Origin: Octopus sinensis
Lineage: Eukaryota
DNA length: 25,699 nucleotides
Reading direction: 5' to 3'
Assembly (NCBI RefSeq): GCF_006345805.1
Contig: NW_021833336.1
Coordinates: forward strand, 1-25,699
A program made the position numbers and the translations under genes. The notes beneath the pieces were generated by a model. That model searched no databases. It worked only from the letters and a program-made list of their open reading frames with translations, and was not told where the DNA came from. Shown here piece by piece: positions 3,887-20,732 of the stretch (the stretch's first letter is position 1; each line of letters opens with the position of its first letter).

Positions 3887-4121
3887 AAGGCGGCGGGCTA
3901 GCAGAATCGTTAACACGCCGGGCGAAATGCTTAGCGGTATTTCATCTGCCGCTACGTTCTGAGTTCAAATTCCACCCAGGTCGACTTTGCCTTTCATTCT
4001 TTCGGGGTCGATTAAATAAGTACCAGTTACGCACTGGGGTCGATATAATAGACTTAATCCGTTTGTCTGTCTTTGTTTGTCCTCTCTGTGTTTAGACCAT
4101 TGTGGGTAGTAAAGAAATAGG
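3887..4121 (+). mobile_element. tRNA-derived SINE family B, full-length monomer inserted in the Penelope RT
   Basis: Head AAGGCGGCGGGCTAGCAGAATCGTT, B box GAGTTCAAATT, centre GTCGACTTTGCCTTTCAT..GGGGTCGA..AAGTACCAG, tail GTAAAGAAATAGG. Same family as 14156, 10887 and 18204. Confidence 0.9.
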
Positions 4122-5060
4122 TGCATATATTTTACATTATTTGCACAAAGAATTCCAAAACTTAAGAATGGGTGAATACAGGAATGGCGGGCTTATTAAT
4201 ACTCATAATAAGATGGGTCATGAGCGCGATAAGTTCGGAAAGAATGTTATTGTATTCTTCTAGCATAAGGATTTAGAATTCTCTCTTTGTTACAGTTAAT
4301 ATGAAATTTAGTCGCGTCAACTCTTTAGATATTACTTCAGACCGAGAAACTAGCAGTTTTAGGCTTTATTGTAAACCTAAAGTTTATTCTACATTAATAA
4401 TAATTCAGCCCATCCACTGTGTAGCCTTAAAAATGTGATTCATCAGATAGGTAAGCGAATGTTCAATTGTCAGTGGATGAAGTGGCCTTAAATATAGCCT
4501 CCCCTTAGTACAATAATTCTCTTAAGGACACGGTTTCTTAGAACATATCCATTATGTGAGCAATGAAAATAACCCCCGACATATCGGCCCTTAGTAATGT
4601 AGTGAAACAGTGATTGAATAATCATTGGTGTCACAATTAGCCGAATTTTCCTTGTGACGAATACTGCAGTAAATTAATCTTTCAAAGATTGATTTGCTTT
4701 AAGTATGATACACAAATATCTATATTAAACTAATACTGCTATTGTCGCACATAAAAGAATTCTAATTAAGGCTACTGGCTTAGTATAAACTCGGCGATTT
4801 TTTAATGATTGTCTTTCTATATAAGTGACGGTTGATTATATATTAGAATTGCCAGTGAACAAAACCAAAAGAGACAGAAATGCACATTTAGTGCTACCAA
4901 ACACCGCTGCTGGACACTTTTCGTCTGAAACTGGTATATTTCACTCTTTCTTAACACTATATGCCTTTAAGAAACATTATCTCAGAACGAATACCGGTGT
5001 AAATTACACTTTCAATGAAGTATCTGCTTTCGGCATGATACATAGATTGCTGTTTTAAAC

Positions 5061-9750: not shown

Positions 9751-10205
9751 TTATTAGCAACAACTACAACCATAAAATTGACACTATCAATAACAACAAC
9801 AGCAACAAAAATATCACCAGCAGCAACAATCAGAAACATAAAGTCTAGACAATTATATCACGGTAGACAATTCACAAATTAGATTATTGCCAGCTGAATG
9901 GAAATTCTATTAGATATATAAATTAATAAACGATGTAATGATAGGCAATCGTTTAACTTCTATAGCAACCTTTATTAGAAGGAAAAGAATGAGAAGTAAC
10001 ATATGACGTTCGGAGAAACAGAAACGTACATTATTTAGATGCTTTTAATCGGTAATATCCCCGAAAAGTAGAAAATATAAAGCGACTGTACTTCTGGAAG
10101 CAGACAGGGCAGTGAAAGAACTGGAGGAGATGAGGGGAGAACCTTTTTCTTTTTACAAAGACATTGAATGACTTTGACTGTTGCTCTACTCGACCAGGAT
10201 AGCTG

Positions 10206-10417
10206 TTGTTGTTGTTGTTGTTGTTAAGCAACAAGATGGGTAAGGGTGATTAGGTGATGGTCTAGGGCTTAGGAGCGGGAGACCCCAGACCTTGGAAAAA
10301 AAAAACTTTGGTCGTCTTGTTGTAGTCGAGGGCTCTTCGTTGACGCCCAACACCACTGGGAGGTGGCCCTCGAAGTCGCTGGAAATGGAGATCTCCAGGT
10401 CCAAATTCTTGGACGGC
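10206..10417 (-). mobile_element. Ribozyme-headed short non-autonomous retroelement, copy 1
   Basis: Highly similar to 17767-17969; (AAC)n 3' tail; TSD cgaccaggat(a/g)gctg at 10191-10205 and 10417-10431; internal T10 tract; no tRNA A/B boxes seen. Confidence 0.88.
10326..10417 (-). ncRNA. Predicted HDV/CPEB3-like self-cleaving ribozyme with a split P1, copy 1
   Basis: GCC[GTCCAA-GAAT-TTGGAC][CTGGAGAT-CTCC-ATTTCCAG]CGAC-T-TCGAGGGCC(P2)-ACC(P3)-TCCCAGT(L3)-GGT-GTTGGGC(P1')-GT-CAA-CGAA-GAGCCCTCGA(P2'). Folded by hand. Confidence 0.7.
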
Positions 10418-10724
10418 GACCAGGATGGCTGAGTTGTATGCTAGTCTGAATATAATATGAATGTCAATGTCTGCGGAAAAAGAGTGAACGAAGAAGAAAA
10501 AAAAAACCAAAAAATAAACAGGGTCCTCATCTTGACACATGCAATTGAGTAAATACCACGAAAGGCATTCAAGAAACTGATGGGGACAGTGATCAACTGG
10601 GTGATATTTTAAGTCCCATACCTGTAAAAAAAATATAAGACAAAGGAGAAACTCCTTGTTTCACGAGGGGCAGAAATTAAGACACCAGAAATACTTCACT
10701 GTTGTCTGTCTAGTATTTACTTAG

Positions 10725-11212
10725 TGGAGACGAGTGGCTTAGTGGTTAGAGTATTGGATTCATGATCGTACGTTTGTGGTTTCGATTCCTGGACCAGGAG
10801 ACACGTCGTATTCTTGAGCAAAATACGTCATTTCCCGTTGATACAGGCCTCCCAGATAGCAAAAATGAGTAATCCTGCGACGGACCTATTTCTTTACTAC
10901 CCACAAGGGGCTAAAGGCAGAGGGAATAAACAAGGACTGACAAACGGATTAAGTCGATTATATGCGTAACTGGTACTTGATTTATCGACCCCGAAAGGAT
11001 GAAAGGCAAAGTCGACCCCGGTAGAATTTGAACTCAGAACGCAGCGGCGGACGAAATACCACAAAGCATTTGCCCGGCATGCTAACGTTTCTTCCAGCTC
11101 GCCGCGACGGACCGGCGTTACGTGCAGGTGCGGAATATATACGCCACTGAAACCGGGAAACCGGCCCTTATGAGTCAGCATGACTCGAGAAGATAACTTT
11201 ACTTACCTTTCA
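10725..11212 (+). mobile_element. tRNA-derived SINE family C, interrupted by a family-B SINE
   Basis: A box TGGCTTAGTGG, B-box-like GGTTTCGATTCC, CORE-like TTCTTGAGCAA. Resumes after 11113 and ends in a CTTTAC-type tail. Confidence 0.75.
10887..11103 (-). mobile_element. SINE family B monomer nested in family C, 10-bp TSD
   Basis: gcgacggacc at 10877-10886 and 11104-11113. Confidence 0.9.
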
Positions 11213-14155: not shown

Positions 14156-16050
14156 AGGCAGCGAGCTGGTAGAAACGTTAGCACGCCGGGCGAAATACGT
14201 AGCCGTATTTCGTCTGCCGTTACGTTGTGAGTTCAAATTCCGCCGAGGTCGACTTTGCCTTTCATCCTTTCGGGGTCGATAAATTAAGTACCAGTAACGC
14301 ACTGGGGTTGATACAATCTACTTCATCCGTATGTCCCCTCTGTGTTTAGCCCCTTGTGGGTAGTAAAGAAATAGGTATTTCGTCTGCCGTTACATTCTGA
14401 GTTCAAATTCCACCGAGGTCGACTTTGCCTTTCATCCCTTTCGGGGTCGATAAATTAAGTACCAGTAACGCACTGGGGTTGATACAATCTACTTCATCCG
14501 TATGTCCCCTCTGTGTTTAGCCCCTTGTGGGTAGTAAAGAAATAGGTATTTCGTCTGCCGTTACATTCTGAGTTCAAATTCCACCGAGGTCGACTTTGCT
14601 TTTCATCCCTTTCGGGGTCGATAAATTAAGTACCAGTAACGCACTGGGGTTGATACAATCTACTTCATCCGTATGTCCCCTCTGTGTTTAGCCCCTTGTG
14701 GGTAGTAAAGAAATAGGTATTTCGTCTGCCGTTACATTCTGAGTTCAAATTCCACCGAGGTCGACTTTGCCTTTCATCCCTTCGGGGTCGATAAATAAGT
14801 ACTAGTAACGCACTGGGGTTGATACACATCTACTTCATCCGTATGTCCCCTCTGGTTTAGCCCTTGTGGTAGTAAAGAAATAGGTATTTCGTCTGCCGTT
14901 ACATTCTGAGTTCAAATTCCACCGAGGTTCGACTTTGCTTTTCATCCCTTTCGGGGTCGATAAATTAAGTACCAGTAACGCACTGGGGTTGATACAATCT
15001 ACTTCATCCGTATGTCCCCTCTGTGTTTAGCCCCTTGTGGGTAGTAAGAAAAAATAGGTATTTCGTCTGCCGTTACATTCTGAGTTCAAATTCCACCGAG
15101 GTCGACTTTGCCTTTCATCCCTTTCGGGGTCGATAAATTAAGTACCAGTAACGCACACGTGGGGTTGATACAATCTACTTCATCCGTATGTCCCCTCTGT
15201 GTTTAGCCCCTGTGGGTAGTAAAGAAATAGGTATTTCGTCTGCCGTTACATTCTGAGTTCAAATTCCACCGAGGTTCGACTTTGCCTTTCATCCCTTTCG
15301 GGGTCGATAAATTAAGTACCAGTAACGCACTGGGGTTGATACAATCTACTTCATCCGTATGTCCCCTCTGTGTTTAGCCCTTGTGGGTAGTAAAGAAATA
15401 GGTATTTCGTCTGCCGTTACATTCTGAGTTCAAATTCCACCGAGGTCGACTTTGCCTTTCATCCCTTTCAGGGTCGATAAATTAAGTACCAGTAACGCAC
15501 TGGGGTTGATACAATCTACTTCATCATCCGTATGTCCCCTCTGTGTTTAGCCCCTTGTGGGTAGTAAAGAAATAGGTATTTCGTCTGCCGTTACATTCTG
15601 AGTTCAAATTCCACCGAGGTCGACTTTGCCTTTCATCCCTTTCGGGGTCGATAAATTAAGTACCAGTAACGCACTGGGGTTGATACAATCTACTTCATCC
15701 GTATGTCCCCTCTGTGTTTAGCCCCTTGTGGGTAGTAAAGAAATAGGTATTTCGTCTGCCGTTACATTCTGAGTTCAAATTCCACCGAGGTCGACTTTGC
15801 CTTTCATCCCTTTCGGGGTCGATAAATTAAGTACCAGTAACGCACTGGGGTTGATACAATCTACTTCATCCGTATGTCCCCTCTGTGTTTAGCCCCTTGT
15901 GGGTAGTAAAGAAATAGGTATTTCGTCTGCCGTTACATTCTGAGTTCAAATTCCGCCGAGGTCGACTTTGCCTTTCATCCCTTTCGGGGTCGATAAATTA
16001 AGTACCAGTAACGCACTGGGGTTGATGTAATCGACTTAATCCCTTTGTCT
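14156..16050 (+). repeat. SINE family B head followed by a tandem array of its ~171-bp body (10 full units plus 1 partial)
   Basis: Unit starts (gtatttcgtctgccg) at 14205, 14375, 14546, 14717, 14884, 15058, 15231, 15402, 15576, 15747 and 15918. Only the first unit has the 5' head. Confidence 0.95.
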
Positions 16051-17045: not shown

Positions 17046-17766
17046 CATGTATACATATAAAACGAAACAATCCCAAAACGTCTCTCATATTTTTTTTTTA
17101 CAGTTTTCGCCATTTAATCTACAAAAACGAAAATAGTTTTCTCTACTTTCATATATTCGTCGGTTTATTTTGGTGTAAGCAGCAGTGTTTCTGACATTCG
17201 TGTCTGTTATTTAAAAAGCCGTGAGTAAAGAGTGAGAGAGAGAGAGAGAGAAAATATTCGCATATTAAGGTGTGAATATTATCTGACCTTTTAATAACGA
17301 ACTGTCAAAGTATCTATTTTAGCACCACTGATTTTACTAAAATAAACAGTGGACATTGTTGACCTAGAACTAAGCTTTTAATCTAAAAAATAAAAAATAA
17401 AATAAAAATTTAACAAAAATGCTCTCTGACAAACACAGAACTCAATCTAAAATGGAAAAACTGCCATACAACTTGACATAGTCCAGATGAGAAGCTCTTC
17501 TATTCAAGTTATTTGTTTCAGAATGCAAATATGATAGATTAGACTATCCTCAAATATATATTTTATTTAGCACAAGATTGCAAATATGGATGTGAATGGC
17601 GGACGTCATATGTCAGATGAGAGGAGAAAGTTCGACATCTGTCACATCAGATGCGTTCGTAAGATGTTGGGTGTCTCATGGGAAGATATGGTCACCAACA
17701 ACGATGCCCTTTGAAGAACAGAATTTGAGACAGCATCTTCAAACTTTAGTGAGTATTGCGTAGGAT

Positions 17767-17969
17767 TGTCGTTGTTGTTAAGCAACAAGACGGGTAAGGG
17801 TGATTAGGCGATGGTCTAGGGCTTAGGGGTGGGAGACCCCAGACCTTGGAAAAAAAAAAACTTTGGTCGTCTTGTAGTCGAGGGCTCTTCGGTGACGCCC
17901 GACACCACTGGGAGGTGGCCCTCGAAGTCACTGGAAATGGAGATCTCCAGGTCCAAATTCTTGAACGGC
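17767..17969 (-). mobile_element. Ribozyme-headed short non-autonomous retroelement, copy 2
   Basis: Same 5' end as copy 1; short (AAC)n tail; TSD at(t/c)gcgtaggat at 17755-17766 and 17970-17981. The host LINE sequence is continuous across it. Confidence 0.88.
17878..17969 (-). ncRNA. Predicted HDV/CPEB3-like ribozyme with a split P1, copy 2
   Basis: GCC[GTTCAA-GAAT-TTGGAC][CTGGAGAT-CTCC-ATTTCCAG]TGAC-T-TCGAGGGCC-ACC-TCCCAGT-GGT-GTCGGGC-GT-CAC-CGAA-GAGCCCTCGA. Four differences from copy 1, none breaking a pair. Confidence 0.7.
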
Positions 17970-18203
17970 ATCGCGTAGGATAGCTTGGTTATGTACGCTG
18001 TATGAACAGAAGTCCGCATCCCTAAAGATGGTTTAGTACAGTCGGGTTCTGGAAAGTCGTCACTACATGAGATATAGTGGTGTGAGATTTACACACGCAT
18101 GTACAGTCACACACTCACACACATTCACACATACATATACACATGTACACGTACACACACATACACACATAGATATATAAGCACACGTACACACACATAT
18201 CTT

Positions 18204-18589
18204 ATTTCTTTATTGTCCACAAGGGGCTAAATATAGAGGGGATAAACAAAGACAGACAGACGGATTAAGTCGATTACATCGACCCCGAAAGGATGAAAGG
18301 CAAAGTAGACCTCGGCGCAATTTGAACTCAGAACGTAACGGCATACGAAATACCTATTTCTTTACTGCCCACAAGGGGCTAAACACTGAGAAGACAAACA
18401 AGGATAGACACACGGATTAAGTCGATTATATAGACCCCAGTGCGTAACTGGTACTTATTTAATCGACCCCGAAAAGATGAAAGGCAAAGTCGACCTCGGC
18501 GGAATTTGAACTCACAACGTAGCGGCAGACGAAATACTGCTAAGCATTTCGCCCGGCGTGCTAACGGTTCCGCCAGCTCGCCGCCTTAT
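18204..18589 (-). mobile_element. SINE family B with one head and two bodies (dimer), 17-bp TSD
   Basis: gtac(a/g)cacacatatctt at 18187-18203 and 18590-18606; internal junction GAAATAG|GTATTTCG at ~18353. Confidence 0.9.
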
Positions 18590-20144: not shown

Positions 20145-20589
20145 GTCTTGAGGAAAGCTAATATCTTGAGTGTTGAGGGGATGGTGCACCGGTTACATTC
20201 GATTGGACACCTTATTAGAATGAAGGATAGTAGGATACCTAAATATATACTTATGGGGAACTTGTTAGTGGAAAGAGATCCCGGTAGAAACCAAGGCTGC
20301 GACTAGGAGAGCAATGCCTGTCATCACCTTTAAATGCCTGTCGACACCTTTAATGCCTGTCGACACCTTTAAAAGGGCACGTATTCTTCATGAAGAATTT
20401 AATTGTGCTGCTCTAAAGCGCGCTGCTGGTGTAATAAATAGGAAAAGCTTGGTTTGCAATGTCTGCTGTCGTGTATGCTTGCTAAGAGCAGGTCTCTTTA
20501 GCCACCAACGGAACCGCAAATGCAAAACTATAAGTTAGTCCTAAAGGTCAGCAATGGTCTTCCTCCGTCACGAGTGGACGGCCATCATT
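20145..20589 (+). mobile_element. 3' end of an RTE-type LINE (decayed), embedded in (TATG)n
   Basis: VLRKANILSVEGMVHRLHSIGHLIRMKDSRIPKYIL.. then LVCNVCCRVCLLRAGLFSHQR, the C-terminal CxxC..H motif of RTE ORF2; short 3' UTR followed by microsatellite. Confidence 0.85.
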
Positions 20590-20732
20590 ATGTATGTATG
20601 TATGTATGTATGTATGTATGTATGTATGTATGTATGTATGTATGTATGAATGTATGTATGTATTATGTATGTATGTATGTATGTATGTATGTATGTATGT
20701 ATGTATGTATGTATGTATTATGTATGTATGTA
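20590..20732. repeat. (TATG)n microsatellite, possibly the LINE tail
   Basis: Seen directly. Confidence 0.95.

Follow-up and report, generated by a model that had tools for sequence, protein, structure and literature searches.

Non-autonomous retrotransposons headed by a ribozyme are already known. Non-autonomous relatives of LINEs that keep the LINE 5' end have been linked to 5' ribozymes (Kojima 2018, PMC5786205), and some non-autonomous SINEs are described in a review as using HDV-like ribozymes (PMC6765202). The R2 SIDEs and R2/R1 hybrid SIDEs of Drosophila are non-coding, join a 5' HDV-type ribozyme to a LINE 3' end and are copied in trans; as described, they are rare, rDNA-specific and have a known parent (PMC3414825). 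NARTc, RIME and SIDER of trypanosomatids are short, dispersed elements that start at +1 of an HDV-type ribozyme, Pr77/L1TcRz, with a single-pair P1.1 and activity shown in vitro (PMC4035085, PMC3185411). The text of these reports gives the ribozymes a P4, describes no junction in P1 and assigns Pr77 promoter activity as well. Bipartite derivatives of RTE, Ingi, Vingi and R2 are reported as short, without a small-RNA head, and sharing both ends with a LINE (PMC5786205). Minimal HDV-like and theta ribozymes (PMC10879173), as well as silkmoth R2 and abalone ribozymes (PMC3774820), are described with no P4 and only a few bases between P1.1 and the catalytic C. Finally, the LP-SINEs of gastropods and bivalves are SINE-like elements of molluscs whose head of ~70 bp derives from a LINE, is not of the Pol III kind and is proposed to act as a promoter (PMC4758252).

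The element described here occurs twice in the window (the whole 25,699-nt stretch of DNA that was analysed) and resembles each of these systems in part. It is non-coding, as are the Drosophila elements, but it is dispersed in more than 1,000 copies, prefers (CAN)n sites and has a predicted split P1. Its start coincides with that of an HDV-type fold with a single-pair P1.1, as in the trypanosomatid elements, whereas in this case the ribozyme is predicted. In common with the bipartite derivatives it has no small-RNA head, but no LINE sharing its ends was found among the sampled loci. Like the published P4-less ribozymes it has no P4, but its predicted P1 is broken by 36 nt in two hairpins; the large inserts described for HDV-type ribozymes lie in J1/2 or P4. 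It is likened to the LP-SINEs by description only. We consider it somewhat probable that the element is a young, high-copy non-autonomous non-LTR retrotransposon with a P4-less HDV-type head and a four-way junction in P1, likely excising itself at G1. Since the class is known, the family alone would be a modest addition; the split P1, an unusual feature that was absent from the earlier note on this DNA, matters more.

Anatomy of the window copies

Copy 1 lies on the minus strand at 10417-10206, with G1 at 10417, a 192-nt body extending to 10226 and a 20-nt (AAC)n tail at 10225-10206. Its target-site duplication (TSD) is 14 bp with one mismatch (10431-10418 vs 10205-10192), or 15 bp counting an ambiguous G. 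Copy 2, also on the minus strand at 17969-17767 (G1 at 17969, tail at 17779-17767), has a 12-bp TSD with one mismatch (17981-17970 vs 17766-17755). The two copies are 93.7% identical across 207 columns, and contain a T run of T10 in copy 1 and T11 in copy 2. Together, the tail and the target duplications fix the sense strand of the element. Compared with the family majority, the heads of both copies show changes at wobble pairs or in loops only. The earlier note had reported two copies with a shared 5' end, TSDs, (AAC)n tails, T runs of 10-11 and no A or B boxes, and all of this is borne out by alignment, a box control and family counts. The features, all on the minus strand, are as follows (element numbering from G1).

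10418..10431, minus strand: 5' TSD of copy 1 (14 bp), matching 10192-10205 with one mismatch
10415..10417, minus strand: G1-C3, where the element starts and cleavage is predicted; would form the lower half of P1 with 10345-10347 (aligned copy starts; constrained fold)
10399..10414, minus strand: inserted hairpin 1 within predicted P1 (element 4-19, 6 bp; MFE, pair probability 0.9-0.96)
10379..10398, minus strand: inserted hairpin 2 within predicted P1 (element 20-39, 7-8 bp), abutting hairpin 1 (MFE, pair probability 0.91-0.97)
10375..10378, minus strand: C40-C43, predicted upper half of P1, pairing with 10348-10351 (the sole split completing seven Watson-Crick pairs from G1)
10365..10373, minus strand: predicted P2 5' strand (element 45-53), pairing with element 83-92 (probability 0.94 in the 92-mer)
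10352..10364, minus strand: predicted P3 stem (54-56 with 64-66) and L3 loop (57-63), with U57, C58 and G62 at HDV signature positions (descriptor match; U/G signature as described in PMC3386971)
10345..10351, minus strand: predicted P1 3' strand (element 67-73; sequence, constrained fold)
10336..10344, minus strand: G74, predicted to make the one P1.1 pair with C58; no P4; J4/2, in which C79 (10339) is the putative catalytic base (descriptor match; HDV architecture)
10326..10335, minus strand: predicted P2 3' strand (element 83-92, with A84 as a bulge), where the ribozyme-like head ends (fold; descriptor match)
10226..10325, minus strand: 3' domain with predicted closing stem 96-105/180-189, T10 run at 10296-10305 and internal 10-bp hairpin (fold)
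10206..10225, minus strand: (AAC)n tail of copy 1 (sequence)
10192..10205, minus strand: 3' TSD of copy 1 (sequence)
17755..17981, minus strand: copy 2 with its 12-bp TSDs, antisense within an old RTE-like fragment (alignment; tblastn of the host fragment)

A young family in the source genome

An exact 29-mer from the 3' end of the element occurs 1,059 times in the 2.7-Gb source genome, an animal genome with octopus-like repeats, and its reversed control not at all. The window copies are two members of a young family numbering at least 1,059, for which a majority sequence was built. A DNA search returned 1,334 candidates, and the 40 that were scored are 96-100% identical. Mean divergence from the majority sequence is 3.1% in 60 copies and 3.9% in an unbiased set of 30, and the variation is mostly CpG decay. 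Position 6 (U6/C6) is the sole non-CpG diagnostic site; it divides the family, is unlinked to the other common variants, and keeps its pair with G17 in either form. A T run of at least 7 T is present in 82 of 98 copies. The element contains no ORF, and its dispersed copies with TSDs and a simple-repeat tail have the features of a non-autonomous non-LTR retrotransposon.

If the element were merely the 3' UTR of a longer LINE, as the earlier note had allowed, its 5' ends would fall at random truncation points. Two element fragments do start at position 92. However, the first 30 sites of the 3' 29-mer, picked regardless of their 5' end, all reach the same 5' end, at position 1, 2 or 3 (28, 1 and 1 copies, respectively), with later insertions interrupting three of them. 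Among aligned copies 111 of 131 start at position 1, and 119 of 131 at positions 1-3. No LINE coding sequence was found upstream of the truncated copies. This reading is refuted by the shared 5' end and retains next to no probability, and the non-autonomous family proposed earlier holds up. The same boundary appears in public data: contigs of five runs (organism labels A, B, D, E and F) leave the element for flanking sequence exactly at the equivalent of 10417, which, in contigs, makes visible the boundary of the element rather than RNA ends.

Two loci (L036 and L044) show the same interruption after element position 159 by another SINE-like repeat with a 15-bp duplication. As these are independent copies, this suggests a favoured insertion site inside the element.

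Pol III features

The best matches to A and B boxes in the first 125 nt of the element carry 2-3 mismatches and do not fall in A-then-B spacing. In contrast, a control tRNA-type SINE at 10725-10805 has an A box with 0 mismatches and a B box with 1 mismatch. ARAGORN identified no tRNA in the window, and the Rfam models yielded no meaningful match at E<=10. T runs stop Pol III. A Pol III SINE would show A and B boxes and no internal T run; the element has no tRNA and no usable boxes, and carries a T run, which disposes of the known Pol III SINE that the earlier note had offered as a competing identity. The wider claim of the earlier note, that the element is promoterless, would be a further step: the head may hold an internal Pol II promoter, given that Pr77 of L1Tc is both promoter and ribozyme.

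Predicted fold of the head

The first 92 nt of the element fit an HDV-type ribozyme without P4, beginning at the exact first base. The unconstrained minimum free energy (MFE) fold consists of two hairpins (4-19 and 20-39), P2 (45-53/83-92) and P3 (54-56/64-66), and leaves exactly G1-C3 (GCC) and C40-C43 (CGAC) single-stranded. Joined end to end, these two segments are the exact complement of bases 67-73, which directly follow P3 at the place of the P1 3' strand in HDV ribozymes. A 7-bp P1 can form only as a 3+4 split around the two abutting hairpins (36 nt), giving a four-way junction inside P1. When the strands of P2 and P3 are blocked, this four-way junction is the MFE structure at -19.5 kcal/mol, a value equalled by 3 of 2,000 shuffles of bases 1-43. 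Some split Watson-Crick P1 is permitted in 962 of 20,000 shuffles, and a split ending near base 43 in 214 of 20,000; the split pairing by itself is weaker evidence than the energy of the junction. Bases 90-93 repeat CGAC and are a rival for the P1 3' strand (probability ~0.2).

The remainder of the head resembles the HDV core. A descriptor of this core without P1 matches element 45-92 with a 9-bp P2, and has six other matches in 1.55 Mb of redundant loci. The core features are matched in the nested double-pseudoknot order, with U57, C58 and G62 equivalent to U20, C21 and G25, the pair C58-G74, and C79. The stretch after G74, J4/2, contains C79-G-A-A and leads into P2. One departure is A61 in L3, which stands where we take HDV to have C24. 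All core pairs and bases are intact in only 20 of 60 copies.

Several of these features have precedents. P4-less members, a single-pair or C:U P1.1, and P2 mismatches are found among active or predicted ribozymes (PMC3774820, PMC3185411, PMC13635239, PMC10879173). Less favourably, the A that precedes G1 in most copies ranks third among the bases at -1 in genomic HDV (PMC1874588). J1/2 is one place in which large inserts have been reported (PMC4908430), P4 another. The literature text that was searched describes neither a junction inside P1 nor this element family. The ribozyme head proposed in the earlier note holds up as a predicted fold that fits an HDV-type ribozyme from G1. By descriptor, the head lacks the contiguous 6-7-bp P1 running from the cleavage site that is an HDV-like feature, and Rfam HDV-type models gave no meaningful match at E<=10, nor at E<=1.

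The absence of an Rfam match would also be expected if the fold had arisen by chance in some other structured RNA, for instance a degenerate Pol III SINE or a small RNA that has escaped recognition. Loose descriptors do yield chance matches (a looser form of the one used here hit two independent chance sites in 457 kb), and the free-fold z-scores of -1.6 and -2.5 are modest. However, coincidence would have to place the core, P1 and the element boundary together, and a Pol III origin sits poorly with box matches at background level and a T run that would stop the polymerase. We regard this origin as highly improbable.

An active HDV-type ribozyme could also use another P1, either one of 3 bp (1-3/71-73) with a structured J1/2 extending to base 44, or one of 6 bp combined with a 4-bp P3, the junction then being incidental. 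One R2 ribozyme, from a wasp, works with a P1 of 4 nt (PMC3774820), J1/2 domains that are structured and activate cleavage have been described (PMC4908430), and the free MFE pairs C53 with G67, lengthening P3. It would, however, leave to chance that C40-C43 is exactly complementary to G67-G70 and is left free by the hairpins. These alternatives appear improbable, though less so than coincidence.

The head may instead descend from an HDV-type ribozyme that no longer cuts, disabled by the insert and A61, in which case G1 would reflect the start of an internal Pol II promoter or a single master locus. The family is star-like: apart from U6/C6 it has no non-CpG diagnostic site, and none of its variants are linked, which fits one or two source loci. 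Covariation in the helices does not favour function: a single pair shows two-sided change, and 226 of 500 shuffles scored equally high, as is to be expected since the family is so young. There are also precedents for a promoter role, as Pr77 of L1Tc is reported as both promoter and ribozyme (PMC3383444), and the LINE-derived heads of the mollusc LP-SINEs are proposed as promoters (PMC4758252). In some R2 ribozymes one mismatch in P1 is enough to lower cleavage or abolish it (PMC3774820), and by the same token a junction in P1 may abolish it. On the other hand, the source sequence of the family retains all seven P1 pairs despite the insert, and also has P1.1, the U/G signature and C79, none of which a dead ribozyme need keep. 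Loss of activity is thus unlikely, but it is the most serious competitor to the self-cleaving head with a split P1 that we favour, in which cleavage probably occurs at G1.

Among pattern matches in the source genome and public collections, no diverged relative was found. Four viral and 56 metagenomic matches to the core pattern were set aside; none of the 56 has a credible P2, and the four viral matches are unrelated by eye. A contig from public run X10 with changes at 38, 40, 41 and 51 led to a prediction of compensation that failed, as the predicted partner changes are absent. This variant is not in the source genome and represents a decayed copy.

It is possible, and we put this forward tentatively, that an active ribozyme of the HDV family, with P1 split by a perfect four-way junction, no P4 and A for the L3 C, drives an orphan retroposon of a thousand copies with (CAN)n microsatellites as its targets. 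Published searches for HDV-type ribozymes look for an uninterrupted P1. Cleavage by this RNA would mean that a four-way junction is tolerated in the substrate helix and that such descriptors are too narrow; contiguous-P1 descriptors and Rfam would miss the architecture, and further HDV-type ribozymes may be hidden in animal repeats. The split P1 would also offer a new attachment place for sensor domains, and host transcripts could be affected wherever one of the more than 1,000 potential cutting sites falls in a microsatellite-rich intron or UTR.

Insertion sites

The 15 bases upstream of the element are (CAN)n-like in 54 of 98 copies, compared with 50 of 5,580 background 15-mers (0.9%). C occupies -2 in 74 of 98 copies and A occupies -1 in 77 of 98. 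At sites outside microsatellites a duplication was detected in 31 of 44 cases; its length is 8-17 bp in all of them except one of 22 bp, and 12-15 bp in 18. Twelve of 16 perfect duplications begin with A and overlap the tail. For RTE elements, (CAA)n tails with A-first duplications are listed (PMC6007223). The RTE signature of a T stretch ~10 nt upstream of the TSD is not apparent in 16 clean cases, which show no T excess at -8 to -12. The pattern seems to fit target-primed reverse transcription aided by microhomology between tail and target.

At four loci (L020, L091, L092 and L119) the element is present two or three times in a span of a few hundred bases, often in (CAN)n repeats beside an earlier copy. 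Such clustering is expected if tails and targets draw new insertions.

The 3' domain and the search for a partner LINE

Bases 93-192 fold as a single unit, whose 10-bp closing stem (96-105/180-189) ends three bases before the tail. This domain is likely the tail recognised by a LINE, and would derive from one. The earlier note had proposed looking for a LINE that shares the 5' and 3' ends of the element, and none was found in seven pattern searches or among 94 LINE loci. In the pattern searches of the source genome, non-family letters were required beside a family motif. They returned 7, 3, 8, 15, 74 (30 of these inspected), 3 and 18 matches, and 84 loci were inspected. All were rejected as the partner: 8 are unrelated and match by chance, and the other 76 belong to the family but carry indels, are truncated or have been interrupted by later insertions. 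A check of 8 truncated or odd loci turned up no adjacent LINE coding sequence.

Protein-family searches drew on the best 150 of 59,986 reverse transcriptase (RT) candidates and the best 150 of 6,710 endonuclease candidates, a sampling that covers high-scoring families only. The 60 stretches taken hold BovB-like RTE elements with (AG)n tails, another RTE with a (TAG)n tail, and CR1/L2-like, Jockey/R1-like and Ingi/Vingi-like elements, the last with (AAT)n tails. No LINE sharing either end of the element was found by blastn of these stretches or by a covariance model over the 94 LINE loci, and the RTE loci among the top-scoring RT and endonuclease matches share no ends with it. LINEs of the Ingi/Vingi type have a similar 3' layout (a stem, a T-rich loop, a short spacer and a triplet tail) but no sequence match. 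The partner may be low-copy, unsampled or extinct. An RTE is a real possibility, though short of probable, and an Ingi/Vingi element is more doubtful.

The earlier note had pointed to RTE fragments nearby as a hint of partnership. These RTE-like 3' fragments, at 17596-18050 and 20145-20590, are real by tblastn to an RTE ORF, and Pfam identified nothing in three short RTE-like fragments. The first hosts copy 2 in antisense and the second has a long (TATG)n tail at its end, so neither of them shows partnership.

The following sequence of events would account for these features. The RNA of the element would be made within a longer Pol II transcript, and its own predicted ribozyme would cut before G1. 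A LINE protein would bind the 3' stem of the released RNA, and an APE-type LINE could then mobilise the element in trans, priming on microhomology between tail and target at CA-rich sites.

The contigs that carry the Ingi/Vingi-type LINEs are unplaced and contain 0 dinucleotide microsatellites per 10 kb, compared with 5-7.5 elsewhere. Many unplaced contigs, in the set L186-L200, L301-L303 and L306, are packed with intact LINEs and show this lack of dinucleotide microsatellites. These contigs likely come from another organism in the assembly. Two of the Ingi/Vingi-type families (L192:1358-1425, plus strand; and L198, L301 and L302, minus strand, 5' of a 2A-like peptide) start with an HDV-like fold. 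Between the two families P2 and P3 differ by changes that keep pairing, and a small P4 hairpin is present. An obvious catalytic C is missing from J4/2.

Other repeats in the window

The head of the tRNA-type SINE at 10725-10805 lies 300 bp from copy 1. A tandem array at 14205-16049 consists of ~11 units of 171 bp that are 96% alike and derive from part of a SINE-like repeat. The repeat from which the array arose is also present singly at 3887-4122, 10884-11105 and 18278-18588.
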